From: Alphaproteobacteria bacterium
Lineage (GTDB): Bacteria; Pseudomonadota; Alphaproteobacteria; UBA9219; RGZA01
Direction: 5' to 3'
Assembly (NCBI GenBank): GCA_028278105.1
Contig: JANQEX010000003.1
Span: 6,972 to 70,971, forward strand
Length of the DNA: 64,000 bases
In this document: in pieces, positions 1 through 64,000 of the stretch
Layout: each line of letters begins with the position of its first letter
How positions within the stretch are numbered: position 1 is the stretch's first letter
Made by a program: the position numbers and the translations under genes
Notes under the pieces: model-generated
Told to the model about the DNA's origin: nothing
The model's input: the letters and a program-made list of their open reading frames with translations, nothing else
Database searches by the model: none

Positions 1-794
1 CCCTGCCGGAGCGGCAGGACGTGATCCTGTTCGACGCGCTGGTGCATGCCAGCATCCGCGACGGGATTCAGGCCAATCCCGCCCGCCATTTCCGTTTCGC
101 GCATAACGACCTGAACGCGCTGGAAGACCTGCTGAAAAAAAATTCCGCCGCGCGGCTGTGGGTGGCCATCGACAGCGTTTACAGCATGGACGGCGACATC
201 GCCCCCCTGCGCGATATGGTGGCTTTGTGCCGGAAATACGGGGCTTTTCTGGTGGCGGACGAGGCGCACGGCACCGGCGTATTCGGCACGGGCGGACGCG
301 GGCTCGCGCACGGAATTGACTATGAAAAGCTGATTACCCTTCACACCTGCGGCAAGGCCTTGGGCGTGGCGGGGGCCCTGATCTGCGCTTCCGCTCCTGT
401 CATTGAGCTTCTCGTCAACCGGGCCAAGTCCTTTCTCTTTTCAACCGCGCCCATGCCGCTCCAGGCGCATCTGGTGGAAAAGGCGCTGGCGCTGTGCGAG
501 GCGGCGGACGGCCGCCGCGCGCATCTGCAAAAACTCTGCAAGACGGCGGAAAAAGCGTTTGGCTTTTCGTCTCCCACTCCGATCTTTCCCTATATTCTGG
601 ACGAAGACACGAAGGCCACCACCGCCGCCCGTTTTCTGCGGGAACACGGCTTCGACATTCGCGCCGTCCGCCCGCCGACCGTGCCGGAGGGAACCGCCCG
701 CCTGCGCATCACCCTCAACGCCCTGCGCACGGAGGATGAAGTCGCCGCGCTGGGCCAGGCGCTTGCCGAATTCACCGCGCATGCTGCGGCATAA
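1..794 (+). CDS. bioF: 8-amino-7-oxononanoate synthase, C-terminal part (5' end lies outside the window)
   Basis: The reading frame is open to the window edge. It carries class-II PLP aminotransferase motifs DSVYSMDGD, DEAHGTGVFG and HTCGKALG (PLP lysine). It belongs to the same biotin cluster as bioD/bioA. Confidence 0.8.
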   Translation, partial: LPERQDVILFDALVHASIRDGIQANPARHFRFAHNDLNALEDLLKKNSAARLWVAIDSVYSMDGDIAPLRDMVALCRKYGAFLVADEAHGTGVFGTGGRGLAHGIDYEKLITLHTCGKALGVAGALICASAPVIELLVNRAKSFLFSTAPMPLQAHLVEKALALCEAADGRRAHLQKLCKTAEKAFGFSSPTPIFPYILDEDTKATTAARFLREHGFDIRAVRPPTVPEGTARLRITLNALRTEDEVAALGQALAEFTAHAAA

Positions 795-859
795 CGCCCT
801 GAAACAGGCCGGGCAAGGCGGTGAAGTCCCCGGATGCCTTTGGCTTCGCGGGGCCGGCG

Positions 860-3628
860 TCAATTCGTCTTAACGCAAACAGCATGTACGGCAGTAGTAG
901 TAGCCACCGGGGAATAAGGGTCATAGGAAATACATCGCCATCCGTTATTGTAAGGTATGCTGGATATAATATGGCCATCGTAAGATACTGTCTCACAGCC
1001 GCCGGAAAGCACCGTGTAATTCACCGGACACTGAACGCTAACCATTTTTCCGCCAGCTTGCGTAATTGAGTTGTTCACAATCGTGGTCGTGAGGCCAAAG
1101 GCGGTTGCAGCCACCTTGCCTGCAACATCGAGCTTGGTTGCCGGACTCGTCGTCCCGATGCCGACATTGCCGGAGGGAGTGACGGCAAAGATATCGTTCC
1201 ACGCTGTTCCATTATAATAAGAAATTTCGAAATTATTCGCGCGAGTTCCCCAGCCGCTCGACCGTTTTGAAACGACCCAGATATTAGATGAATCTTCAAA
1301 AAAGCTGACCGCGCCTGTATTGAGCGTCCCGGAGGTATGCGGACTTTCAAGGCGCAATTCCGCGGACGCCGACGCATTATATATTTCCAGTGGAAATTCC
1401 GGGCTCGTTGTTCCGATGCCGACGTTGCCGTCGTGGTCGATGGTCATCCGCGCCAAATTGCTTGTTCCAAAATGCAGGGCGTCATTGTTCACGTTGACCA
1501 CCGCGGCTGAGTTGTCGGCGCCACTGGTCGAATGGTGATAACTGTCGTCAGAATTCCCGTCGCTGTTGGTCAGCAAAAGGCCCCAGCTTGTATTGGCGGC
1601 GTGCGCGATATTGACCTGGTTATAGATGGCACCCTTAATGCGCAGCACGTGGCCATGGCCCCCGCCGCCCACGTCAAGCAAAGCACCCGGCGTTGCCGTC
1701 CCGATGCCGATATTGCCGCCGGTGTAGTAGAGGGCGCTGCTGGCGCCGTCCTGCCACTGCGAGGAACCCGCCGCCGCGCCGTTTTCCCATGCGCCGCTGG
1801 AGGAATTATAGACCAGCGCCTCGCCGTCCGAGAGCGTGCCGAGCGACACGTCGGTCAGCCCGGCCAGCGTGCTTGAGCCGCCACCTCCGCCGCCGTCCCC
1901 GCTGCCGTTTATCAGGAAACCAGAGAACCTTGTGAATAGCGTTGTGCCGTGAATATTCAACCCGCCGGCATCATCTGCGAGAGCGTAAATTTCAATATAA
2001 TCGGTGCTGCCATTCATATCCAGCACCGCCGTCACGTTCGGTACGACCGTCGCGCTGTTTTGGTATCCACTCAAATATATAACGCCGTTTTTATATATCC
2101 TCAGAAAGCAAGCAGTGGCCGCATGCTCACAAAGCGCATTGGCGGTGACGAGGTACTTGCCGGCAACGGTTGGGGTAAAGCGACTGGTTGCCGTATCAAA
2201 GTTGTTGTTGGTGTCGTAATCCTCCGCAGGCCAGGTCACCTTTGTCTCGGTAAAATGGGGGATCGCCTGGCTGACGCCGTTCTTGTGGACCGAGAACGCG
2301 ACCTGGGTTCCGCTGCCCGGCCCGGCAGCCGTCCAGCCTGAGGCAGTCTTGACGTAGAGGGAATCCCGGTCGGTGTCATAGACCACAAGACCGGTGGCGG
2401 GCGAACTGATCGCCTCGCGCTGCACCGTGGTCATGCGCGGGGGGAGGAAGCCTTTGCTGGTGCTGGTCACGTCGAACAGCGCCGAGGCGGCGGGCGATGA
2501 CGTGCCAATCGCCACCGCCCCCGTGGTGTAATAAAGATCACTCCCCGACGCGCCCCATTGCGAGGAAGAGACGCTGGCCCATGTCTGGTCCCCCCGCAGA
2601 TAGGTGGAATTGTCCGCCGTGCCGCCGCCAAGCCGGGCAGTAGGCACCGTGCCGCTGGCGAGATTGCCGGCGTTCAGAGCCGTCAGCGACGCGCCGGAGC
2701 CTGAGAAAGCCATGGCCGTCACCGTACCGTTCACATCAAGCTTCGTGGCCGGACTCGCCGTTCCGATGCCGATGTTGCCGGAAGGAAGGACACTGAATAA
2801 ATCGCCATTCGACACGCCATATGTGCTGATTGCAAAAAGACTGGCCGTCTGTCCGTACGCGCTCCTGATCTGGAGCCCAACCTGGTCATTCGCAGGCATC
2901 AATGCCAATCCTGGCTGCGGACTCCATCCAGTAGAAAATTGGGCAACGTAAGATCCGCCCGTACTTCCGACCGCCACGTAAGGCCCGCCCTGGAGGCCAA
3001 TCCCCCCGCCCCCATAAGTTACTATCCTATATTTCGAAGCACCGGATTGAAGGCGAATGAGTTCGCCAAAATCTGAAGCAGCAACATGCAGGGGTGCAAC
3101 GGGAGTGCTCGTCCCGATCCCCACATTGCCGTTTGCATCCACCACGCCCAACACATTGCCCGAAGAGTCCCGCCACTCCTGCAAATTCCCCGTCTGGCTT
3201 GCCGCGCCCTTTACGACAAGGGGAGTGTCGGTCGCGGCCTGTGATATAAGCATCAGCAGGACGCCGGAGGTGGCATAGGTGGCGGCCACGGCACCACCAA
3301 GGCCTGTTCCGGTGTTATACTGCACCTGCCCGCTGGAGCCGCCGGCGCCGCTGACCGGCGCATCCTCGGTGCAGGTGATAATGGTACCATTGCTGGAGCA
3401 CCATTTGCCGTTCTCCAAGGTACCCACCTTGGGGTCCACCTCGGTGGCCGAGCCGGAAGCCGCCATGCTGATCCAGCTTGCGCCGTCGCAGAACTGCATC
3501 ACGCCGTGGTCGGCATTGTAGATTTGCTCGCCCTTAATGCCGGTGGGGTTCGCACAGCCCGCCCACAAGGGACCACCGGCCAGCAGCGCGGCGCAAAGGG
3601 CGGCAAGGAAGGCAAGGTCGCGCGTCAT
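860..3628 (-). CDS. secreted fibre-like repeat protein (tail-fibre/adhesin type, with internal C1q/TNF-like domain and Cys-rich C-terminus)
   Basis: Lies in a 950-aa ORF; the likely start is the ATG at 3628, giving MTRDLAFLAALCAALLAGGPLWAG-C, a signal peptide with an atypical lipobox. It has six GN(V/I)GIGTxxSP...L(D/H/E)(V/I) repeats. It also has YLRGDQTW and GFLPPRMTTVQREAI motifs typical of phage tail-fibre-like proteins, and a poly-Gly linker. GC is visibly lower than in the flanking bio genes. Confidence 0.75.
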   Translation of the reverse strand: MTRDLAFLAALCAALLAGGPLWAGCANPTGIKGEQIYNADHGVMQFCDGASWISMAASGSATEVDPKVGTLENGKWCSSNGTIITCTEDAPVSGAGGSSGQVQYNTGTGLGGAVAATYATSGVLLMLISQAATDTPLVVKGAASQTGNLQEWRDSSGNVLGVVDANGNVGIGTSTPVAPLHVAASDFGELIRLQSGASKYRIVTYGGGGIGLQGGPYVAVGSTGGSYVAQFSTGWSPQPGLALMPANDQVGLQIRSAYGQTASLFAISTYGVSNGDLFSVLPSGNIGIGTASPATKLDVNGTVTAMAFSGSGASLTALNAGNLASGTVPTARLGGGTADNSTYLRGDQTWASVSSSQWGASGSDLYYTTGAVAIGTSSPAASALFDVTSTSKGFLPPRMTTVQREAISSPATGLVVYDTDRDSLYVKTASGWTAAGPGSGTQVAFSVHKNGVSQAIPHFTETKVTWPAEDYDTNNNFDTATSRFTPTVAGKYLVTANALCEHAATACFLRIYKNGVIYLSGYQNSATVVPNVTAVLDMNGSTDYIEIYALADDAGGLNIHGTTLFTRFSGFLINGSGDGGGGGGSSTLAGLTDVSLGTLSDGEALVYNSSSGAWENGAAAGSSQWQDGASSALYYTGGNIGIGTATPGALLDVGGGGHGHVLRIKGAIYNQVNIAHAANTSWGLLLTNSDGNSDDSYHHSTSGADNSAAVVNVNNDALHFGTSNLARMTIDHDGNVGIGTTSPEFPLEIYNASASAELRLESPHTSGTLNTGAVSFFEDSSNIWVVSKRSSGWGTRANNFEISYYNGTAWNDIFAVTPSGNVGIGTTSPATKLDVAGKVAATAFGLTTTIVNNSITQAGGKMVSVQCPVNYTVLSGGCETVSYDGHIISSIPYNNGWRCISYDPYSPVATTTAVHAVCVKTN

Positions 3629-3885
3629 GGCTTGCCGGGCGCGGAAAAGAGGGACGGGATAATGGGATAAGGCTTGGGCTTCGCAGCACCCGTCACCACG
3701 CGGCCCTGACACCGCCGCCAGTCGGCGGGGTGATCCGGCGTTCCGGTGGCGCAGGGCGGCGCTTTTTCACGGGAGGCCTTCGCCAGATGAAAGGATTCCG
3801 GCCCGGCCAAGACGGCGGCAAGGACGGCCAAAACAGCCACTCCCGCGGCTGTACCCATGAGTGCAAGTGACCGGCGCGCGCCCAC
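3625..3885 (-). CDS. small single-pass membrane protein (86 aa), translationally coupled to the fibre-like gene
   Basis: GTG start at 3885 is preceded by GGGGGAG. A hydrophobic helix LMGTAAGVAVLAVLAAVLAG is present. Its TGA overlaps the ATG of the downstream gene (ATGA, 3625-3628). It sits directly behind leader RNA copy 3. Confidence 0.5.
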   Translation of the reverse strand: MGARRSLALMGTAAGVAVLAVLAAVLAGPESFHLAKASREKAPPCATGTPDHPADWRRCQGRVVTGAAKPKPYPIIPSLFSAPGKP

Positions 3886-4076
3886 GCTTAAACTCCCCCT
3901 GGTGGCTGGGAGTTCGAAAATCGTACACAGACGACTGCAGGGGCCTTTGGCCGTAAGGCTTGGACATGCGCCACTGCCTCCCAGCCCGACAGGCCGGAGG
4001 CAGCGTTCATCTCGGCAACGCTGACCGCTGTGTACGAGGTTTCGACACCCCGGAAATGGCCAGAACCATTTCCGCC
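3886..4076 (-). ncRNA. structured 5' leader RNA, unclassified family, copy 3
   Basis: Shares the conserved core ATGTCCAAGCCTTACGGCC and the same hairpin order as the other three copies, with compensatory arm changes. On the minus strand it is preceded by TTGACC (4108-4103), 17 nt, then CAGTAT (4085-4080). The terminal helix AACTCCC/GGGAGTT covers the SD of the 3885 ORF. Confidence 0.6.
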
Positions 4077-4311
4077 AAAATACTGCGGGATCAGCTTAAA
4101 AAGGTCAACAGCATTATGGTAATGTTCCGGCCTGGCTGGTATCACGCCCGCGCCCGGCTTCGCCAAGGCCATGCCGGGATAATATGCGGACATCCCATTG
4201 TGTTTCATCACATGGAATCTTCGCCGGAGTCCGTCCCCGTCCCGGTCCTCATGAAGACAGGCTCCGGCGGGCGCGGGAATGTTCGCAATATTTTGCCAGA
4301 CGGGCCGTTTC

Positions 4312-4947
4312 ATGACTCAACGCTTCATCATCACCGCCACCGGAACCGATATCGGCAAAACACTGATTGCCGCTGTTTTGATGCTGGGGCTCAAGGCCAG
4401 CTACTGGAAGCCGGTGCAATGCGGCACGGGCGGCACGGAAGGAGAAACGGACACGCAAACCCTGCGCCGCGTCACGGAACTGCCCGGTGAAAGATTTTTT
4501 CCTGAATCCTGCGTTTTCAGGAATGCGCTTTCGCCCCATCGGGCCGCCGAGCTTGAAGGACGCGAAATCGATCCTGAAAAAATCACCATGCCCGCATGCG
4601 ACGCGCCGTTGTTGATCGAAGGCGCGGGCGGATTGCTCGTGCCGCTTACGCGCAAATTTCTGCTGGTCGATCTTTTCGCAAAATGGCAAATCCCCGTTTT
4701 GCTTTGCGCCTCTACCGCGCTTGGCACCATCAACCATACCTTGCTTTCGGTCGAGGCGCTGAAAGCGCGCAAAATCCCGCTGCGCGGACTGATATTCACC
4801 GGCCCCGAAAACCCCGACAACATAAGGACCATATGCGAATTCTCCGGCGCGCGGGCTTTGGGATGCCTGCCCCCGCTGGAAGCGCCATCGCCCGCCCGTC
4901 TCTCCACGGCGTTCGACACATATTTCAACGCGGCGGATTTCGCATGA
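4312..4947 (+). CDS. bioD: dethiobiotin synthase
   Basis: N-terminus MTQRFIITATGTDIGKT (P-loop GTDxxxGKT) followed by WKPVQCG. The stop overlaps the bioA start (ATGA). Confidence 0.85.
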   Translation: MTQRFIITATGTDIGKTLIAAVLMLGLKASYWKPVQCGTGGTEGETDTQTLRRVTELPGERFFPESCVFRNALSPHRAAELEGREIDPEKITMPACDAPLLIEGAGGLLVPLTRKFLLVDLFAKWQIPVLLCASTALGTINHTLLSVEALKARKIPLRGLIFTGPENPDNIRTICEFSGARALGCLPPLEAPSPARLSTAFDTYFNAADFA

Positions 4948-6224
4948 CAGGCCACGCCTCCGCCCTTTGGCATCCCTTCACCCAACATGCGCGGACGGAC
5001 GCGCCGCTTTTTGTCGAACGGGCCGAAGGCGCCACGCTGCTCACGAAAGACGGGCGGCGGATCATCGACGGCATCTCGTCCTGGTGGGTGAATATTTATG
5101 GCCACAACCATCCTGCAATCGTGGAGGCGGTGAAGGCGCAGGCCGAAAAGCTGGACCAGGTGATTTTCGCGGGCTTCACCCATGCCCCGGCCGAAGAGCT
5201 GGCGGCAAGCCTGACCGCGCTCATGCCGCCCGCGCTTCATCATGTTTTCCTGTCCGACAGCGGCTCAACCGCCGTGGAAGTGGCCCTGAAAATGGCGCTG
5301 GGCGCGCATATCCACCGGGGCAAGCCGCGCCGCATGATCGCGGCGTTTCAGCACGGCTATCATGGCGACACCTTCGGCGCGATGGCGGCGGGCGCCCCTT
5401 CGGTATTCAACGAAATCTACGCGCCGTGGCTCTTCAGGGTAGAACGCCTGCCCTTTCCCGAAGCGGGGCGCGAAGAGCAAACCGTCGAAGCCTTCCGCAC
5501 CCTGCTGAAAGAACATGAAAACGATGTCGCCGCGTTGATCGTCGAACCATTGGTGCTGGGCGCGGGCGGCATGCGGATGTATTCCCCCACGGTTTTGCGG
5601 GATCTCAAGCGGCTTTGCGAAGCGCACGGGGTTTACCTGATCGCCGACGAGGTGATGACGGGCTTCGGCCGCACCGGCACGCTGCTGGCAAGCCAGCAGG
5701 CCGATATTGTTCCCGATATTCTATGCCTTTCAAAAGGACTGACGGGCGGCATGCTGCCGCTGGGCGCCACGCTGTGCGGCGATGATATTTACCAGGCTTT
5801 TTACTCATCCGACCGCAACAAAACCTTCTGGCATTCCTCATCCTATACCGGAAACCCGCTGTCCTGCGCCGCCGCCTGCGCCAGTTTAAAGCTATGGCAA
5901 ACGGATGAAACGCAAAAAAACATCGCGCGGCTTTGCAAGGCGCAGGAAGAACATCTGGGCGCAATCGCCGCGCATCCGCGGGCCGTAAATGCGCGGCACC
6001 GTGGCACTATCGCGGCGTTCGATCTTCGCGCGGAGGATGCCGGATATTTTTCGCGGATTGGCCCGAAACTCTATTCCTTTTTCCTCGCGCGCGGCGTTCT
6101 GCTGCGCCCGCTCGGCAACACGCTGTATGTCATGCCGCCTTACTGCATCGCGCCGGAGGCGTTGAACCGGATTTACGCCTGCCTGAAAGAGGCTCTGGAT
6201 TCCGTCGCGCAAGAGGAAAAATAA
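4944..6224 (+). CDS. bioA: adenosylmethionine-8-amino-7-oxononanoate aminotransferase
   Basis: Class-III aminotransferase motifs: WHPFTQ, SSWWVNIYGHNHP, DEVMTGFGRTG, LSKGLTGG (PLP lysine). The ATG at 4944 overlaps the bioD stop. Confidence 0.9.
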   Translation: MTGHASALWHPFTQHARTDAPLFVERAEGATLLTKDGRRIIDGISSWWVNIYGHNHPAIVEAVKAQAEKLDQVIFAGFTHAPAEELAASLTALMPPALHHVFLSDSGSTAVEVALKMALGAHIHRGKPRRMIAAFQHGYHGDTFGAMAAGAPSVFNEIYAPWLFRVERLPFPEAGREEQTVEAFRTLLKEHENDVAALIVEPLVLGAGGMRMYSPTVLRDLKRLCEAHGVYLIADEVMTGFGRTGTLLASQQADIVPDILCLSKGLTGGMLPLGATLCGDDIYQAFYSSDRNKTFWHSSSYTGNPLSCAAACASLKLWQTDETQKNIARLCKAQEEHLGAIAAHPRAVNARHRGTIAAFDLRAEDAGYFSRIGPKLYSFFLARGVLLRPLGNTLYVMPPYCIAPEALNRIYACLKEALDSVAQEEK

Positions 6225-6531
6225 ACCCTCCTTAACTGGCGCGCCTTGAAGGCGGAAAATCCGCGCCGATGGTCACGCCGAAAGATATGCACAAGGGATT
6301 TCCGCTCCGGCAAGCTGAAAAAGCTTATAATTTCAGCACTTTCGGACCACGCGGCGCGAAAAACATCTTGCGGCGGGGAACGGCTCTGTTAGGGTTGCGC
6401 ATCGGGCGGCTGCCTTGAACCCATTCTGGAAACAGGCGGCTCAGGTGAAGCCGGTTGCGTTTTACCCGCCTTTTGCTAGTGTTTTTCCCACCTGTCGAAT
6501 CAACTTTTAATACCAGGAAAGGTTCCAAGCC

Positions 6532-6831
6532 ATGGCTACTGCATCCCAACCCACCGTGACCCTGAAGCACATCGCGGCGGATCTCGCCGACAAGCACAAG
6601 CTTCCGAAAAAGCAAGCCACCCAGATGCTGGAAGACTTCGTGACTCATGTCGTCAAGAACCTGAAGAAAGGCAACCGCATCCGCATTGGCGGCCTTGGCA
6701 TCCTGCAGGTCCGCAAGCGCGCGGCGCGCATGGGCCGCAACCCCGCAACCGGCGAAACGATCCAGATTCCGGCCAAGAAGAAGATCGCCTTCCGCGCCGC
6801 GAAGGAACTCAAGGAAGCCGTGGGCAAATAA
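6532..6831 (+). CDS. HU/IHF-family DNA-binding protein
   Basis: 99 aa with IRIGGLGILQVRKRAARMGRNPATGETIQIPAKKKIAFRAAKELK, the typical HU beta-arm signature (RNPxTGE). Confidence 0.9.
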   Translation: MATASQPTVTLKHIAADLADKHKLPKKQATQMLEDFVTHVVKNLKKGNRIRIGGLGILQVRKRAARMGRNPATGETIQIPAKKKIAFRAAKELKEAVGK

Positions 6832-6868
6832 GCCCGGTTTTCCCGCCGGAATACGGCATCATTTCAAG

Positions 6869-6895
6869 GAGCGGCCTTCGGGCCGCTCTTTTTTT
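6869..6895 (+). terminator. rho-independent terminator downstream of the HU gene
   Basis: GAGCGGCC-TTCG-GGCCGCTC hairpin followed by a run of seven T. Confidence 0.65.
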
Positions 6896-6943
6896 ATGCG
6901 CATGTGCGGGCGCATGCGCCTGTTGCAAGGAAATTCCCGCTTT

Positions 6944-6978
6944 TTCTGACTTCTGACTTCTGATATCTGATTTCTGAT
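6944..6978. repeat. 5 x 7-nt tandem repeat (TTCTGAC TTCTGAC TTCTGAT ATCTGAT TTCTGAT) abutting tRNA-Ser
   Basis: Read directly from the sequence. It ends 2 nt before the tRNA 5' end. Confidence 0.8.
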
Positions 6979-6980
6979 AT

Positions 6981-7070
6981 GGAGGGGTGGCAGAGTGGTC
7001 GATTGCGGCGGTCTCGAAAACCGTTATACCCGCGAGGGTATCGGAGGTTCGAATCCTCTCCCCTCCGCCA
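6981..7070 (+). tRNA. tRNA-Ser (anticodon CGA), CCA encoded
   Basis: Acceptor stem GGAGGGG/CCCCTCC, anticodon loop CT-CGA-AA, long variable arm, T-loop GGTTCGAATCC, 3' GCCA. Confidence 0.9.
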
Positions 7071-7082
7071 CCGGCAGTGTCT

Positions 7083-7700
7083 CACTTTGAAAATCACCCC
7101 CGCGCCCGTCTTCTCGCGGGGGCAAGCTCCAGCAGGGGCAGGCATGACATTTGGTTAAATTGGGTCTGGCCCCCAATTCCTCTCCCCCTTGGGGGAGAGG
7201 TTGCAAGAGCTTGGGTTTAGATGCGAAGCAGCTAAACCCTTATACTAACGAATTTATGAACGGACACGCGCCAAAAAGTAACCTGTCATGCCCGCCCCCG
7301 CTGGAGTTTACCCCCGCGAAGGCGGGGGCGAGGGCAGGCTCCGGCGGGCATCCACGCTAAAAAACCATCAAAACAAAAGTTTTAAAGCGTGGACCCCCGC
7401 CTGCGCGGGGGTGACGGTCCATGCTTTCAGGATGAGTTATTTCATAAGACCGCTGGTATTAGTTGTTGCTGGTGAGGGGGTTCACTCCCCGAACTCCTCC
7501 CCGCCTTCGCCCTTCGAGCTTCGGTGGACGAGATTTCTTCAAGGACCCGCCGGAGCTTTGGCGAAGGCGGGCAAGAGAAGAGAAAGCCTTTCCCGAAAGA
7601 GACGAAGGCCCCCATGGTTCTTCCTCCCATACCCTCCCCTAACCCCTCCCAAAGGGAGGGGGAGCATGAATGTCATGGCCGGGTCGCGGAAATGTTCGGG
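7083..7700. repeat. dense cluster of nested GC-rich palindromic repeats (REP/MITE-like), approximate bounds
   Basis: Contains units also found elsewhere in the window: a family unit at 7086-7148, hairpin CCTCTCCCCC-TT-GGGGGAGAGG at 7179-7200, a family-C element at 7253-7448, a CCCGCCTTCGCC...GGCGAAGGCGGG palindrome at about 7498-7572, and a CCCTCCCAAAGGGAGGG hairpin at about 7626-7665. Confidence 0.7.
7253..7448. mobile_element. MITE-like element, family C, copy 1
   Basis: Ends TTATGAACGGACACGCGCCAAAAAGTAACC... and ...GAGTTATTTCATAAG. Shares the core GTCATGCCCGC...GGGCATCCACGCTAAAAAACCATCAAAACAAAAGTTTTAAAGCGTGG with 49570-49743. Confidence 0.6.
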
Positions 7701-7767
7701 TGCGGCCTTGTTCTTCAGGCATTTTCCTCCGTTCATTGACAGCTTGCGGCAGGACTGCCAATCTGAT

Positions 7768-7989
7768 GCCAGAAGATCACTGGATCTTTCGGGGTATAGT
7801 TACCTCTCGATTAGCGGAACGAGCGTTGCCGACACAAACGCTGCCTCCGGCCTTATGGCTGGGAGGCAGTGGCGTATGTCCAAAGCCTCGCGGCTGAAAG
7901 GCCATTGCAATCGTCTAATCGCGATTAACTAACTCCCAGTCACCAAAAAGCATGCCGGCGCGCGGCATGCCCATCAATGGGAGGGCATC
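7768..7989 (+). ncRNA. structured 5' leader RNA, unclassified family, copy 1
   Basis: Preceded by TTGACA (7735-7740), 17 nt, then CAATCT (7758-7763). The hairpin series and conserved core ATGTCCAAAGCCTCGCGGC are present. Anti-SD CTCCC pairs with SD GGGAG just upstream of the ATG at 7990. Confidence 0.6.
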
Positions 7990-8151
7990 ATGGACTGGAT
8001 AGACGTCGTTCTGCGGCTGTTAAGCTGGCAAAACTTCCTTATCATAATCATCACCACATGGGGCTATAATTTCCATCTCCGCATTCTGGAAATCCAGAAA
8101 CAACATCGGGAAGTCATTGCCCTGTTGCAGGAAATTTCGGCGAAGACATAA
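7990..8151 (+). CDS. 53-aa hydrophobic membrane peptide (MDWIDVVLRLLSWQNFLIIIITTWGYNFHLRILEIQKQHREVIALLQEISAKT)
   Basis: ATG is preceded by GGGAGGG. There is one predicted TM helix. A near-identical paralogue lies 549 bp downstream. It is below the 60-aa cutoff of the ORF track. Confidence 0.55.
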   Translation: MDWIDVVLRLLSWQNFLIIIITTWGYNFHLRILEIQKQHREVIALLQEISAKT

Positions 8152-8321
8152 AATTCGCCGTCTTCTTCGCGCATCGCTTAACCTGCGGCCATCTGAAGCT
8201 CGACCCACTCCCCGATCAGGCCCTTTCCATATCCCCAATGTACGTATCTTGTGCGGCTTTGTTCCTTGAGCCTTTTTTTCTCCGTTCATTGACAGTTTGC
8301 GGCAAGACTGCCAATCTGATG

Positions 8322-8538
8322 CCGGAAGATCACTTGATCTTCCGGGGTGTAGTTACCTCGCAGTTACCGGAACGAGCGTTGCCGACACAAACGCTGCCTC
8401 TGGCCCTATGGCTGGGAGGCAGTGGCGTATGTCCAAGCCTCACGGCCAAAGGCCCCTGCAATCGTGTAACTGCGATTAACTAACTCCCAGTCACCAAAAA
8501 GCATGCCGGCGCGGCATGCCCATCAATGGGAGGGCATC
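8322..8538 (+). ncRNA. structured 5' leader RNA, unclassified family, copy 2
   Basis: Preceded by TTGACA (8289-8294), 17 nt, then CAATCT (8312-8317). Helices: GGAAGATC/GATCTTCC (8324-8343), GCGTT/AACGC (8376-8394), CTGCCTC/GAGGCAG (8394-8422), AATCG/CGATT (8460-8477), GCATGCC/GGCATGC (8501-8519), and anti-SD CTCCC (8484-8488) with SD GGGAG (8528-8532). Confidence 0.6.
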
Positions 8539-8700
8539 ATGGACTGGATAGACGTCGTTCTGCGGCTGTTAAGCTGGCAAAACTTTCTTATCATAATCAT
8601 CACCACATGGGGCTATAATTTCCATCTCCGCATTCTGGAAATCCAGAAACAACATCGGGAAGTCATTGCCCTGTTGCGGGAAATTTCGGCGAAGACATAA
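8539..8700 (+). CDS. 53-aa hydrophobic membrane peptide, paralogue of 7990-8151 (one Q/R difference)
   Basis: Lies within the track ORF 8503-8700. The ATG at 8539 has a GGGAGGG SD. It differs from copy 1 at only 2 nt over 162 nt. Confidence 0.55.
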   Translation: MDWIDVVLRLLSWQNFLIIIITTWGYNFHLRILEIQKQHREVIALLREISAKT

Positions 8701-8875
8701 AAAACGCGCCAATCCGGGCCGAACGCCAAGCGCAAAAGCCGTGAAAATCGCCTCGCGCGCCAATAAAGCCGGAAGCCAAAGACCAGGCGCGAGACCGTTC
8801 CGCGCATGGCTGCGGGCTGGAAATTCAGATGCTCTGCGGTTATGCCCGGTACAGGCGGCAGGCCGTCCCCGCCCT

Positions 8876-10585
8876 TTAGGCCACCTTGACGGCGGGAGCC
8901 GCGCGGCGGGCTTCTTCCTCGATCAAATAGCGGCGGGACAGCTTGCCGATGGCCGTTTTGGGCAAGGAGTCGCGGAATTCCACCTGTTTGGGAATTTCAT
9001 GCGCGCCGAGCCTGTCTTTTAGAAAGCCGCGCAATTCCAGCCCGGTGAGCGCCGCGCCCGGCCTCAGCCTGACATAGGCCTTCACGATCTGGCCGCGCGT
9101 GGCGCTGTCCACCCCCGCCACCACGCATTCCTCGACGGCGGGATGGGTATAGATGGCCTCTTCCACATGGCGCGGGTAAATTTTCATGCCGCCCATCATG
9201 ATCATGTCCTTGATGCGGTCGACAATGCGGATATAGCCGTCTTCGTCGCGCACACCCACATCGCCGGTATGAAGGCGCCGCGCGCCGTCCGGCATTTTTT
9301 CCAGCACGCCCGCGGTATCCAGCGGGCGGTTCCAGTAGCCCATCATCACCTGCGGGCCGCGAATGCACACCTCACCCATCTCGCCCGCGCCAAGCGCCGA
9401 GGTTTCATCCTCCAGCGACACGATGTCCAGCGTCGTGCCAATCATCGGCAGGCCGATGGTCCCTTCCTTCTGCGGCGCGCCGATGGGGTTGCAGGTGGCC
9501 ACCGCCGAGCATTCGGTCAGTCCGTAGCCCTCGGCCACCACGCAGCCGGTCAGCCGCTCGAATGTGCGTTTCACCTCCACGGGCAGGGGCGCGCCGCCGG
9601 AGATGCAATAATCGATGGACGACAGGTCATATTCCTGCGCCGACTTCGACTGGTTGATCGCGGCGAAAATGGACGGCACCGCCGGAAACAGCGTGGGCCG
9701 CTTGTTATGGATGTGGCGGATAAGGTCCATCACCTCGAAGCGGGGCAATAGGATGATGGTTCCCATCATGGCGGTGGTGACGTTCAGCACCACCGTCAGC
9801 GCGAAAACATGGGTCAGCGGCAGCACGCCCATCATCCGCACCGCGCCCATCTCAAGCGTCGGGAAAATGCCCCGGCCCTGCAGCGCGTTGGCGGCAAGAT
9901 TGGCGTGGCTCAGCATCGCCCCCTTGGGAACGCCGGTCGTGCCGCCGGTGTATTGCAACACGGCGACGTCTTCCACAGGATCGATGACGGCGCGCTGATA
10001 AGCGCCGTCATTGTCCAGAAGCCTGCCAAAAGACATGTAGACGTCATCCCGCGGCATGGACACGGCCGATTTCGCATCCAGAACCCCGCGCAACAGGCTT
10101 TTCCAGCCGGGCAGCATCTCGCCGAGCTGGCAAAAAATAACGGCGCGAAGCTCTGTTCCCGTCCGCGCCTTTTCGAATTTTTCGAAAAGCGCGGGGTGGT
10201 CGAGCGTGGCCATGACGCGGACGCCGGAATCCTGCATCTGCTGGGCGATTTCGCGCTCGGCGTAAAGCGGGTTGAAATTGACGACGGTCGCGCCGATCTT
10301 CAGCGCCGCCAGATAAAGAATGATGTAATGCGGCGTGTTGGGGAGAAGCAGGCCGACACGGTCGCCCTTCTTCACGTCCAGATCCTGAAGCCCGCGCGCC
10401 GCGCGGGCCACCAGTTTCGCAACCTCGGCATAGCTGAAATGGCGGTCCAGAAAATCGATGAAGCAATGATGCGGCAGGACCGCCACCGCCTCGTCGAACA
10501 AGCTGTCGGCCGGGCGCGGCGCAAGAAGCCGGGCAATATCGGCCTCGGATTCAGGACGTGTTATGATTTGCGGGGAAGTTGTCAT
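8876..10585 (-). CDS. AMP-dependent acyl-CoA synthetase/ligase (long-chain fatty-acid-CoA ligase-like)
   Basis: AMP-binding motif YTGGTTGVPKGAMLSH, GYGLTE, DGYIRIVDRIKDMI. The ATG at 10585 (MTTSPQ) is preferred over the upstream alternative. Confidence 0.85.
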   Translation of the reverse strand: MTTSPQIITRPESEADIARLLAPRPADSLFDEAVAVLPHHCFIDFLDRHFSYAEVAKLVARAARGLQDLDVKKGDRVGLLLPNTPHYIILYLAALKIGATVVNFNPLYAEREIAQQMQDSGVRVMATLDHPALFEKFEKARTGTELRAVIFCQLGEMLPGWKSLLRGVLDAKSAVSMPRDDVYMSFGRLLDNDGAYQRAVIDPVEDVAVLQYTGGTTGVPKGAMLSHANLAANALQGRGIFPTLEMGAVRMMGVLPLTHVFALTVVLNVTTAMMGTIILLPRFEVMDLIRHIHNKRPTLFPAVPSIFAAINQSKSAQEYDLSSIDYCISGGAPLPVEVKRTFERLTGCVVAEGYGLTECSAVATCNPIGAPQKEGTIGLPMIGTTLDIVSLEDETSALGAGEMGEVCIRGPQVMMGYWNRPLDTAGVLEKMPDGARRLHTGDVGVRDEDGYIRIVDRIKDMIMMGGMKIYPRHVEEAIYTHPAVEECVVAGVDSATRGQIVKAYVRLRPGAALTGLELRGFLKDRLGAHEIPKQVEFRDSLPKTAIGKLSRRYLIEEEARRAAPAVKVA

Positions 10586-11710: not shown

Positions 11711-11747
11711 GGCAGGTCCTTTCGGAAGTCCGGGTTAACTACAAAAC

Positions 11748-11864
11748 GAACATTCCCGCCCCCGCCTGCGCGGGGGCAGGCTCCAGCGGGAATCCCATTT
11801 TATAAAATGGGATTCCGGGTCGCGCGCCCTCCGCTGTCGCGGAGGGCCCTTGCCCGGAATGTTC
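11748..11864. repeat. palindromic MITE/REP-like element, family A (TIR GAACATTCC)
   Basis: Runs GAACATTCCCG...CCGGAATGTTC. Its first 56 nt are identical to the copy at 63574-63693. Confidence 0.75.
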
Positions 11865-11906
11865 AATTTTTATTTTCATGGGGTTCGATCCTGATTGCCG
11901 CGGAAG

Positions 11907-32454: not shown

Positions 32455-32713
32455 TTGCCGTCATTGCGAGCCACGCGGATAGCGGGGCGAAGCAATGCAG
32501 AATATTTAATGAACATTCCGGGCAAGCGAGCCCCGGCGAAAGCCGGGGCCGCGCCGACCCGGAATCTCATTTGTTTTCTGTTCGAAGAATAAAACGGGAT
32601 TCCCGCTGGAGCCTGCCCCCGCGCCCGGCTTCGCCTGCGGCACCGCCGAGGTCTTGGCGCATGTGTCGCGCCGGAGCTTTTGCGGAGGCGGACAGGCGGG
32701 GGCGGGAATGTTC
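32455..32713. repeat. family A-related palindromic repeats, including an approximately 200-bp element with GAACATTCCGG...CGGGAATGTTC ends (32512-32713)
   Basis: Units GTCATTGCGAGCC...GGGGCGAAGCAATGC and GGGATTCCCGCTGGAGCCTGCCCCCGCGC are shared with other intergenic sites. Confidence 0.65.
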
Positions 32714-32817
32714 GTATTTGGTTATGCTGGATTGCTTCGGGAGCAAAGCTCCCTCGCAATGACGGCTTCGGACAATTTTTGCACAAGTTCTCCTGTTATT
32801 CCAAGGATGCATGGCCC

Positions 32818-63523: not shown

Positions 63524-63573
63524 GACTTCCTCCTTCCGGCCGAGCTATTAGGTTCAATGGCCAATGACCAACA

Positions 63574-63693
63574 CGAACATTCCCGCCCCCGCCTGCGCGG
63601 GGGCAGGCTCCAGCGGGAATCCCATTTTATTTGATATAGAAACCAAATGGGATTCCGGGTCGCGGTTGCTGCGCAACCTTGCCCGGAATGTTC
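63574..63693. repeat. palindromic MITE/REP-like element, family A
   Basis: Runs GAACATTCCCG...CCCGGAATGTTC. Its first 56 nt are identical to 11748-11803. Confidence 0.75.
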
Positions 63694-64000
63694 ATCGGGT
63701 CTTTTCGATGATTTGAGTTTAATTATCCATTGAACCTAGAAATAAACCGTCCGGGCGGGGGCGCGGCCTGTCAAGCCGTCCTTCGCCGATTCCCCGGTAG
63801 CTTGACCCTTTGCATAAAGCCGCTTTTACTCAAGTCTTTCCCCAATGGCAGGCAGGCGTTTTGCTGGCTTCCAGCTTGTTCAAGATTGAAAACCGGAAAA
63901 CGCGGCGGCTGTGGCTGCTGCTGGCGGTCATGGGCCTCGCGCTCGGCCTGCGGCTGGTCTTCGCCGCGCAATGGCTGGCCACGCCCTTCGGCGCGGCGCC

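Follow-up and report, generated by a model that had tools for sequence, protein, structure and literature searches.

The present analysis concerns the DNA between the biotin genes bioF and bioD in a 64,000-nucleotide stretch of contig JANQEX010000003.1 (assembly GCA_028278105.1, positions 6,972 to 70,971 of the forward strand), which belongs to an uncultured alphaproteobacterium of a coral metagenome and is called the window throughout. The 3517 nt that separate the two genes carry genes on the opposite strand, namely a small open reading frame (ORF) and a large fibre gene, which are preceded by a promoter-like sequence and a structured leader RNA. With a probability of about 0.7, these 3.5 kb represent a native, multi-copy, leader-gated fibre operon whose insertion, in this lineage, placed it between the stop of bioF and the start of bioD. 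The features of the locus, in window coordinates, were as follows.

3..794, plus strand: 3' part of bioF (8-amino-7-oxononanoate synthase; TIGR00858, E 8e-76; PF00155), with its stop TAA at 792-794
795..859, no strand: 65-nt spacer separating the stops of two convergent genes, bioF and the fibre gene, read from the sequence
860..3628, minus strand: 922-aa tail-fibre-like, mosaic adhesive trimer (MAT)-like predicted secreted protein, from the ORF and from PHROG, PDB-sequence and PF00386 matches
3625..3885, minus strand: 86-aa ORF with a GTG start at 3885, its TGA overlapping the fibre ATG (ATGA, 3628-3625)
3886..4073, minus strand: leader RNA of about 190 nt, copy 3 of 4 in the window, from structure and family comparison
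3893..3899, minus strand: Shine-Dalgarno sequence GGGGGAG of the small ORF, paired with the anti-Shine-Dalgarno ACUCCC (3913-3908) in the minimum-energy fold
4080..4108, minus strand: candidate sigma-70-like promoter TTGACC-N17-CAGTAT (TTGACC 4108-4103, CAGTAT 4085-4080), from sequence
4112..4124, no strand: perfect palindrome CATTATGGTAATG, which abuts the -35 box on its upstream side and was found once in the 64-kb window
4190..4285, no strand: copy of a GC-rich palindromic element of the repetitive extragenic palindrome/miniature inverted-repeat transposable element (REP/MITE) type (GGAAT...CTGGAGCC...GGCGGGAATGTTCG), from alignment with 11740-11870, 32560-32720 and 63568-63700 and from blastn
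4312..4947, plus strand: intact bioD (dethiobiotin synthase; TIGR00347, 111 bits, cut-off 83.3)
4950..6224, plus strand: intact bioA (adenosylmethionine-8-amino-7-oxononanoate transaminase; NF004624, 577 bits, cut-off 494)

The window begins within bioF, and the TIGR00858 comparison covers only the part of the gene that is present; bioD and bioA gave equivalog-level matches. The three biotin genes stand in their usual order and orientation, bioA begins 2 nt past the bioD stop, and the neighbours of the cassette in the window were bioF, bioD, bioA, HU and tRNA-Ser. The bioF end at 794, the bioD start at 4312 and the minus-strand unit between them, as described in an earlier note on this DNA, could all be located with every part in place. 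BioF and bioD are normally adjacent genes, and the 3517-nt gap with its opposite-strand genes breaks the adjacency of a bioFDA operon. A scan of the genome collection with BioA yielded 80 loci, among which 68 hold bioF, bioD and bioA. The three genes were co-oriented in these 68 loci (alphaproteobacterial and other), the distance between bioF and bioD was 120 nt or less in 57 of them, and none carried a fibre gene between bioF and bioD. The wider gaps seen in sphingomonads were made up of same-strand bioH and bioC. The nearest relatives obtained had 62-65% identity in BioD and a bioF-bioD junction of TAA-3 nt-ATG or a gap below 40 nt. These were L120/L121 (GCA_016307145.1 and a Logan assembly; BioD 65%, BioA 69%), L122 (a JGI metagenome; BioD 64%, BioA 72%) and L001 (a groundwater metagenome-assembled genome, MAG; BioA 69%). 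All of them share the order bioB-bioF-bioD, with bioA directly next in L120-L122, and HU lies 3' of the bio cluster in L120/L121 and L122, the same as in the window. The bioF-bioD junction of L120-L122 reads ...GCCGCCGCTTAA-NNN-ATG....

No BioD more than 65% identical was found among 5.8 billion proteins, which indicates that the lineage of the window is deep and poorly sampled. The synteny comparison indicates that the ancestral state between bioF and bioD is a 3-nt spacer. Since this spacer is seen in L120-L122, the 3.5 kb are supported as an insertion in this lineage only, placed precisely at the junction of the bioF stop with the start of bioD. The earlier note had proposed an insertion uncoupling bioF from bioDA, and the physical separation is borne out by the synteny; the opposite outcome that it had named, relatives all carrying the same gene at this site, was not encountered in any locus. 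The split of the biotin operon would in itself be an ordinary lineage-specific insertion, and it offers a clean natural case in which the members of a tightly coupled pair (TAA-3 nt-ATG) have come to lie 3.5 kb from each other and both remain intact.

Unrelated opposite-strand inserts were also observed at bio junctions elsewhere. A 355-aa ORF (8842-9909, minus strand) separates bioD from bioA in L001, and ORFs of 335 aa and 174 aa (3059-4594, minus strand) occupy the bioF-bioD junction of the Bdellovibrionales MAG L023. Because of these inserts, the junctions of the bio operon are considered to tolerate insertions, and they appear to be recurrent landing sites. Further downstream, in L122 (9800-12200), HU is followed by a DUF2924 protein and then by a large serine recombinase; this region corresponds in position to the tRNA-Ser repeat hotspot of the window (6981-8800).

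An assembly chimera of the metagenome bin could also place a fibre gene between two biotin genes, as the leader and head repeats collect reads from many sources (depth up to about 3400 versus 40) and such repeats can misjoin contigs. The stretch was present in three coral-metagenome runs (X1-X3), and both junctions were crossed by independent Logan contigs. In run X1, a 3663-nt contig equals window 1-1583 and a 3113-nt contig equals 3993-6500, each with zero differences. The depth of these junction contigs was 37-45x, like that of the flanks or the single-copy parts of the cassette, and the depth of the single-copy parts (34-45x) equals that of the flanks. A contig of run X2 (405-900) reproduces the junction of bioF and the fibre gene, and a 426-nt contig spans 3494-3919, including the fibre start, the small ORF and the Shine-Dalgarno sequence, with 0 differences. 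A chimera is thus regarded as exceedingly unlikely, and the cassette is treated here as a true part of the genome.

Logan contig depth sums over organisms and is not a copy number. Read in this way, the leader core region (3940-4030) reached 50-85x the summed depth of flanking single-copy DNA in X1-X3 (in X1 up to the figure of about 3400 versus 40 given above), and the fibre head region was 3-30x higher in the same runs. The leader family is probably very abundant in these coral metagenomes, with several source organisms. Two joints that disagree with the window were seen among the contigs. The first, 671->4968 in X1, would delete the cassette and was judged spurious (21-nt side, depth 8, single contig). 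The second, 4022->4147, skips the promoter and the 5' hairpin and occurs in one X1 contig (depth 39.7, the genome's own) and one X2 contig with a flank match of 22 nt; this joint probably stems from a further leader copy lying beside a further MITE copy and not from a deletion variant.

The composition of the cassette was compared with that of the window. The fibre gene overall has a GC content of 0.59 and a GC content at third codon positions (GC3) of 0.68, the corresponding values for bioD are 0.585 and 0.675, and the background GC3 is 0.70 +/- 0.09 over 39 long window ORFs. A drop in GC was limited to the final approximately 120 codons of the fibre gene, which code for the tip: the last two 100-codon blocks have GC3 values of 0.53 and 0.39, as seen in 8.8% and 0.7% of the background blocks, respectively. 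The visibly lower GC reported in the earlier note therefore applies to the 3' end of the gene and not to the gene as a whole (GC3 0.68 versus 0.70). Because only the last blocks are low in GC3, the cassette is considered compositionally native, with the tip-coding end alone looking imported.

The fibre ATG at 3628 has no Shine-Dalgarno sequence. The predicted signal peptide of the fibre, read from the sequence alone, is MTRDLAFLAALCAALLAGGPLWA|GC with cleavage probably at LWA|GC, and the signal peptides of its relatives carry AxA one residue before a conserved Cys (AMA|AC, ALA|DC, AWA|NC). A lipoprotein reading of LWAGC was rejected based on the residues at -3 (W, R, H or Y), the D at -1 in one paralogue and the AxA before Cys in relatives; a 950-aa GTG-extended ORF was dismissed because the paralogues all start with MTR.... 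Assessment of the domain architecture revealed a head at about residues 25-100 with four Cys, a shaft of repeated GNVGIGT..P..LDV units which correspond to five 55-nt DNA repeats, a weak C1q/TNF-like segment at residues 461-573 (PF00386, E 0.006), and, C-terminal to it, a Gly-rich hinge near residue 600 that is followed by a second shaft and by a Cys-rich knob. Sequence matches were obtained to the tail-fibre family phrog_9942 of PHROG (E 5e-20) and, among PDB sequences, to Bdellovibrio Bd2133 (8ond_A, E 9.7e-7, residues 716-788) and 8ojn_C (E 3.3e-5, residues 717-844); a precomputed PF26696 PTL_trimer match is also listed for the protein. The large secreted fibre-like protein that had been described at this place is in keeping with the predicted signal peptide and with these tail-fibre and MAT-fibre matches.

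Seven paralogues, among them P0002, P0005, P0006, P0007, P0010 and P0011, share residues 1-176 of the fibre with 74-82% identity and then diverge. Their tips consist of an S74 domain in P0007, a BNR propeller in P0010 and P0011, and other tips in P0002, P0005 and P0006. The fibre is one of about 10 head-sharing paralogues in the same metagenome, and full-length head matches fall into at least 15 clusters at 50% identity. Overall, the head protein family is uncommon, with 4145 clusters at 50% identity among 1.84 billion, and a metagenome scan with the head-domain alignment gave no confirmed relative. The fibre would most likely act as a trimeric cell-surface adhesin.

The Cys-rich knob of the fibre (860-1500; CPVNYTVLSGGC...NNGWRCISYD) is shared with a 193-aa mini-fibre at locus L102 (2027-2608; CPEGTVVLSGSC...GNGWSCIYG). 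In the window, the GC-poor 3' end of the fibre gene is the part that encodes the knob, as would fit an exchange of tips. A different organisation of the same family was observed in the alphaproteobacterial MAG GCA_016124955.1 (L082, 1-11079), where at least four consecutive fibre genes of 1956, 1068, 393 and 565 aa (PTL_trimer / Peptidase_S74) have 4-nt overlaps and are followed by a Gly_rich_2 protein.

Tail-fibre PHROG matches, relatives with the S74 chaperone domains that are typical of phage fibres, and a GC-poor 3' tip are also what would be expected of a stray phage or tailocin tail-fibre gene, that is, a prophage remnant which landed horizontally in the bio cluster and has nothing to do with the leader and the small ORF. 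Phage fibres, however, lack both the N-terminal signal peptide and the disulfide-type head that are read in this protein. The region 795-4311 contains no other phage genes, integrase or att-like repeats and thus no phage-gene neighbourhood, GC3 is host-like over most of the gene, and the same metagenome holds the head-sharing paralogues. Moreover, the leader core had no match in 2.9 million viral contigs, and the leader, small ORF and fibre recur as a block. A prophage remnant is considered highly improbable on this evidence.

The leader RNA upstream of the small ORF consists of an Xcc1-like domain (3986-3896) with the invariant core ATGTCCAAGCCTTACGGCC (3967-3949) and an alternative 5' strand (4005-3992) which competes for the GGGAGGCAG segment. 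Three occurrences of the leader core ATGTCCAAGCCTNACGGCC were found in the window at up to 3 mismatches, versus 0.09 expected by chance, and a fourth copy (c1) has a 1-nt insertion; the presence of a leader copy in the cassette, claimed before from the letters of the sequence, is thereby confirmed. The other window copies lie at 7.8 kb, 8.4 kb and 23.3 kb, and each precedes a hydrophobic peptide of 43-53 aa. The region 3986-3896 aligned over the full length of the sRNA-Xcc1 model (Rfam RF02221, model positions 1-87 of 87) with 38.7 bits and E 2.4e-4, below the gathering score of 53, and forms an outer stem that encloses two hairpins. Nothing reached any Rfam threshold, and the C4 antisense RNA family gave no match at E up to 10 in 3700-8700. 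The genomic context of sRNA-Xcc1 (integron, integrase, phage genes) was absent from 795-4311.

Scanning of metagenome contigs for an exact match to the 19-nt core revealed 37 loci, 24 of which have the full flanking elements (18 distinct sequences). The remaining 13 were excluded as chance matches inside coding sequence without the flanking helices. RNAalifold analysis of the 18 sequences revealed four helices with compensatory changes in 24 of 33 pairs, namely an outer stem (GGCYGGGAG/CUCCCRGYC), an inner one that surrounds the invariant AUGUCCAAGCCUNACGGCCAAAGG, a third hairpin and a 5' hairpin. The helices P1, P2 and P3 were recovered in this way independently of the Rfam match. An alternative and mutually exclusive helix is formed by the upstream CGCUGCCUCC with the same GGGAGGCAG segment; it was 87.5% paired and exceeded all 500 shuffles and all slid controls. 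Column 75 of the alignment covaries with both of its partners (alternative helix CG 8, UA 6; inner stem GC 9, AU 7). Because both exclusive helices show covariation, the leader is read as a two-state RNA. The minimum-energy fold of copy 3 contains the 5' helix and a local Shine-Dalgarno hairpin of -12.1 kcal/mol, and the z-score of the whole leader is -3.0. The pairing of the anti-Shine-Dalgarno with the Shine-Dalgarno sequence is kept in other members of the leader family with compensatory changes, regardless of the length of the spacer.

A diverged leader (78% over 89 nt) was observed in a cultured bacterium, Paracoccus versutus DSM 17099, on the pBEN chromid (L123; NZ_CP038196.1, 364029-364116). 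This copy keeps the GGGGCGUCGAAACCCC box and the CUCCCC/GGGAG pairing, lies in an unannotated stretch and stands upstream of a 100-aa non-secreted ORF. The species is a possible laboratory host for the leader RNA.

The candidate promoter at 4108-4080, which had been noted previously, is present in the sequence and scores under the threshold of a generic promoter scan. A TTGACN box with a 17-18-nt spacer, and with its -10 end 111-119 nt before the core, was found at the window copies c1, c2 and c3 and at L085, L089, L100, L101, L102, L103 and L116. The promoter call is supported because this box sits at a constant distance in c1-c3 and in seven metagenome loci. The palindrome CATTATGGTAATG was not found in the bio loci of seven relatives and is a possible candidate operator in the divergent region. 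Most of the 200-nt gap between the cassette promoter and the bioD start is occupied by the REP/MITE copy (4190-4285), which could act as a carrier of the bioDA promoter or as an insulator. A BioR box (TTATMKATAA) or other known biotin operator was not found in the window, the promoter scan and the sequence gave no plus-strand promoter consensus before bioD, and the terminator scan gave no convincing intrinsic terminator in the spacer 795-859. As bioD and bioA are intact, they would have to be expressed either from the MITE-containing 200-nt spacer or by read-through that runs antisense to the fibre gene.

The 86-aa ORF has Arg residues near the N-terminus, an 18-residue hydrophobic core and the motif AKA|S, which would leave a mature part of about 49 aa with two Cys and a Pro-rich tail. 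Its sole homologue in 5.8 billion proteins, P0122, has 87 aa and 56% identity over the full length with one 1-aa gap. The two proteins share the MGA start, a hydrophobic N-terminus, two conserved Cys and a nearly identical Pro-rich C-terminus, and P0122 has ANA|D at the position of AKA|S. The contig of P0122 measures 23,705 nt, equal to the contig of the fibre paralogue P0011. Paralogous contigs share 3579-3702 (C-terminus of the small ORF and start of the fibre) and 3813-3912 (Shine-Dalgarno sequence and N-terminus of the small ORF), and the consensus of the loose end at 3702 in X1, X2 and X3 translates to VDMSRCRH, which is the P0122 peptide. These comparisons indicate that the 86-aa ORF is real and travels with a fibre gene at least twice. 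Its product is best read as a small secreted pre-protein; the small transmembrane protein suggested in the earlier note fits this less well, given the AKA|S site and its ANA|D counterpart, while the overlap of its stop with the fibre start (ATGA, 3628-3625) is present as stated there. The secreted protein may help to assemble or anchor the fibre, or may serve only as a coupling ORF. A 141-aa ORF on the same strand (3888-4313) was dismissed as translation through the leader.

The order of leader, small ORF and large exported ORF was found to recur. A signal-peptide-like first ORF follows the leader in 13 of the 18 distinct metagenome loci, and fibre-family proteins were present at 6 of the 18. 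At four loci (L116, L095, L086 and L110/L114), the leader is followed by a first ORF of about 100 aa, an ATGA overlap and a second exported ORF. In L116, a 103-aa signal-peptide ORF leads through ATGA to an ORF with the head motif CTNPGG..IYN..MQYCNG..W, which begins with ADCTNPGGIAGNMIYNTTVNKMQYCNGTDW and reaches GIGT shaft repeats. L095 has a 102-aa ORF that leads through ATGA to a fibre of 1090 aa whose C-terminus is of the S74 type, and the second ORF of L086 carries the head motif and a tip like that of paralogue P0006. In L100/L112/L119, the leader stands directly before a 141-aa head-domain protein, and in L102 it is followed by a secreted protein and then by the 193-aa mini-fibre with its window-like Cys-rich knob. 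ATGA overlaps were found in five independent cassettes. Because this layout recurs, the cassette is considered to have arrived as a unit and not as a fibre gene behind a resident leader. The placement of the fibre gene under the shared leader, another claim of the earlier note, is supported comparatively by the recurrence at L086, L095, L110/L114 and L116 and by the paralogous copy. Comparison of the loci indicates that promoter, leader, small ORF and fibre form a real, reusable expression module and not a chance arrangement, and that leader, coupling ORF and MAT-like fibre are a conserved operon type.

The same leader stands before the hydrophobic peptides of 43-53 aa at its three other window copies, and a Shine-Dalgarno-sequestering 5' untranslated region resembles the mRNA logic of hok/aapA-type systems. 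A small ORF with a structured 5' untranslated region might accordingly be a type I toxin-like module that carries the fibre gene as a passenger. The 86-aa product, in contrast, is not a short pore-forming helix, since its signal peptide looks cleavable (AKA|S, with ANA|D in P0122) and its mature part is hydrophilic and contains Cys and Pro, and no antisense RNA gene is evident. The first ORFs behind the leader are mostly ordinary secreted proteins of 65-278 aa, and the coupling to a large exported protein was seen in all five cassettes with the overlap. A toxin-like module is therefore judged very unlikely.

sRNA-Xcc1 and the processed C4 RNA of phage P1 are described as trans-acting, and P1 C4 acts in cis and in trans. 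The leader could thus be mainly the gene of a trans-acting small RNA, in which case the fibre would be translated independently, the 86-aa ORF would be nonfunctional and the ATGA would be incidental. The only Rfam similarity is indeed to a family filed as trans-acting, the core is invariant across unrelated loci, which fits a common trans partner better than a locus-specific mRNA, and the small ORFs of different loci are not mutually homologous. Some leaders also precede unrelated, non-secreted genes (L097, L089 and the Paracoccus versutus pBEN copy). This possibility is weakened by the pairing of the anti-Shine-Dalgarno with the first ORF, which is kept with compensatory changes at any spacing, and by the lack of a terminator-like hairpin and T-run between copy 3 and its ORF. 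The recurrent ATGA overlaps, a fibre ATG without its own Shine-Dalgarno sequence and a P0122 frame kept over 87 aa at 56% identity point in the same direction, and cis and trans roles are in any case compatible, as P1 C4 does both. A mainly trans-acting role is accordingly rated as unlikely.

The leader-gated operon would operate as follows. A transcript from the TTGACC promoter would fold co-transcriptionally into an OFF state, in which the 5' hairpin ties up the GGGAGG segment and the downstream CUCCC pairs with the Shine-Dalgarno sequence of the small ORF. After a cue, an ON state with the sRNA-Xcc1/C4-like fold would form, in which pairing between GGCUGGGAG and CUCCCAGCC leaves the Shine-Dalgarno sequence free. 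The leader would in this way gate the translation of the 86-aa secreted protein, and ribosomes terminating at the TGA of the small ORF would reinitiate at the overlapping fibre ATG. As this ATG is without a Shine-Dalgarno sequence, production of the fibre would depend on translation of the small ORF. After export, the fibre would probably be presented on the surface in the form of a trimeric adhesin. The insertion itself would have broken the ancestral coupling bioF-TAA-NNN-ATG-bioD.

Several observations weigh against this reading. The Rfam match is sub-threshold and reported for copy 3 only, with none for c1 and c2 at E up to 10. By computation, the ON fold with its Xcc1-like outer stem is disfavoured by 8.7 kcal/mol relative to the OFF fold, and when helix P1 is enforced the program pairs the Shine-Dalgarno sequence elsewhere anyway. 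Because of this cost, OFF would be the default, and ON would need an unmodelled factor, tertiary contact or pseudoknot. The small ORFs of different loci have no detectable mutual homology beyond signal peptide and cysteines, and may matter only as coupling ORFs. The head-bearing fibre of L081 has no leader, so that the link between head and leader is frequent and not obligatory; a head-bearing fibre was also observed inside the tandem fibre array of L082, where leader copies were not looked for. No integrase, transposase or target-site duplication was found in 795-4311 and no direct repeats link the two junctions, any spread by intragenomic duplication would be hypothetical, and the insertion is undatable since the relatives are no closer than about 65-72% protein identity. 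No RNA run that holds the stretch or the fibre gene was found, and we therefore infer the use of the promoter, the unity of the transcript and the regulation.

A broader and more tentative interpretation, which is doubtful at present, is that Alphaproteobacteria have a dedicated riboregulated repertoire of MAT-like fibres with a common head, swappable tips and one promoter-leader-coupling-ORF module for each fibre. Under the same interpretation, a processed leader from one copy could act in trans on others by analogy with P1 C4, which is conceivable because all copies share complementary leader segments, and the shared 5' block might serve recombination as a handle by which cassettes are moved, in this case into the biotin operon. 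If this were so, trans action of the leader would give all-or-none or mutually exclusive fibre expression, and transcripts reading through from the biotin promoter would be antisense to the fibre gene, so that fibre display would be inversely tied to biotin starvation.

The leader-gated fibre operon is of interest as a compact, conserved and testable control module of promoter, bistable leader, coupling ORF and fibre. Through it, a defined class of exported proteins would be connected with an alphaproteobacterial leader RNA that is widespread but unannotated, and tip-swapping fibre repertoires would be extended to a non-predatory, coral-associated alphaproteobacterium. To our knowledge, neither the regulation nor the anchoring of MAT-type fibres is understood, even in Bdellovibrio.

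The locus can be compared with several known systems. It resembles the canonical alphaproteobacterial bioBFDA operon in the intact order and orientation of bioF, bioD and bioA and in the downstream HU gene, but has 3.5 kb of opposite-strand genes instead of the 3-nt spacer between bioF and bioD. The leader resembles sRNA-Xcc1 and P1 C4 RNA in an outer stem that closes two hairpins and ends in CUCCC..CC ACC, and differs from them by an extra 5' competitor helix which would make it a cis-acting two-state leader. In the immI region of phage P1, Ant synthesis is repressed by C4 RNA (PMC8546580). The window shares with this c4-icd-ant system the order of regulatory RNA, small ORF and overlapping or coupled large ORF, and the proposed control at the ribosome-binding site of the small ORF; its coupling is suggested by the overlap and the missing Shine-Dalgarno sequence. 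In P1, the small ORF icd is reportedly coupled to ant, and C4 RNA is reported to act on ant by way of it. The setting in the window is chromosomal, unlike the integron or prophage settings of sRNA-Xcc1 and P1 immI, and its downstream genes code for exported proteins and not for antirepressors.

With phage tail fibres (S74, PF13884; PHROG 9942/18345), the window fibre has in common the GNVGIGT..P shaft repeats and the domain mosaicism, and an S74-type domain forms the end of both paralogue P0007 and the fibre of L095. It differs from them by its signal peptide, its host-like codon composition, the lack of S74 and the lack of a phage neighbourhood. The closest counterpart in design is the architecture of the MAT fibres of Bdellovibrio bacteriovorus (Caulton et al. 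2024, PMC10769870). Both have a signal peptide (predicted for the window fibre), an N-terminal domain common to many paralogues (about 130 aa in the MATs), a long tail-fibre-like shaft and interchangeable C-terminal tips, which are S74, TNF/C1q-like, lectin-like or beta-sandwich domains (PMC10769870), and the shaft of the window fibre (716-844) is similar in sequence to Bd2133 and to a second solved MAT. The head of the window fibre reads CxNPxGxxGxxIYNxDxxVMQFCDGxxW with four Cys, and sequence comparison with one Bdellovibrio fibre-like protein (P0057) revealed shaft motifs only and no N-terminal match. Because the head has no similarity to the single Bdellovibrio protein compared, the fibre is classified as MAT-like in design and related in its shaft, and not as a demonstrated member of the MAT family. 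Its host is an uncultured coral-metagenome alphaproteobacterium and not a known predator, and its genes stand behind a structured leader and a coupled small ORF, an arrangement not described for MAT genes. Each part of the operon is thus of a known kind, whereas the combination and its chromosomal spread in Alphaproteobacteria are new.

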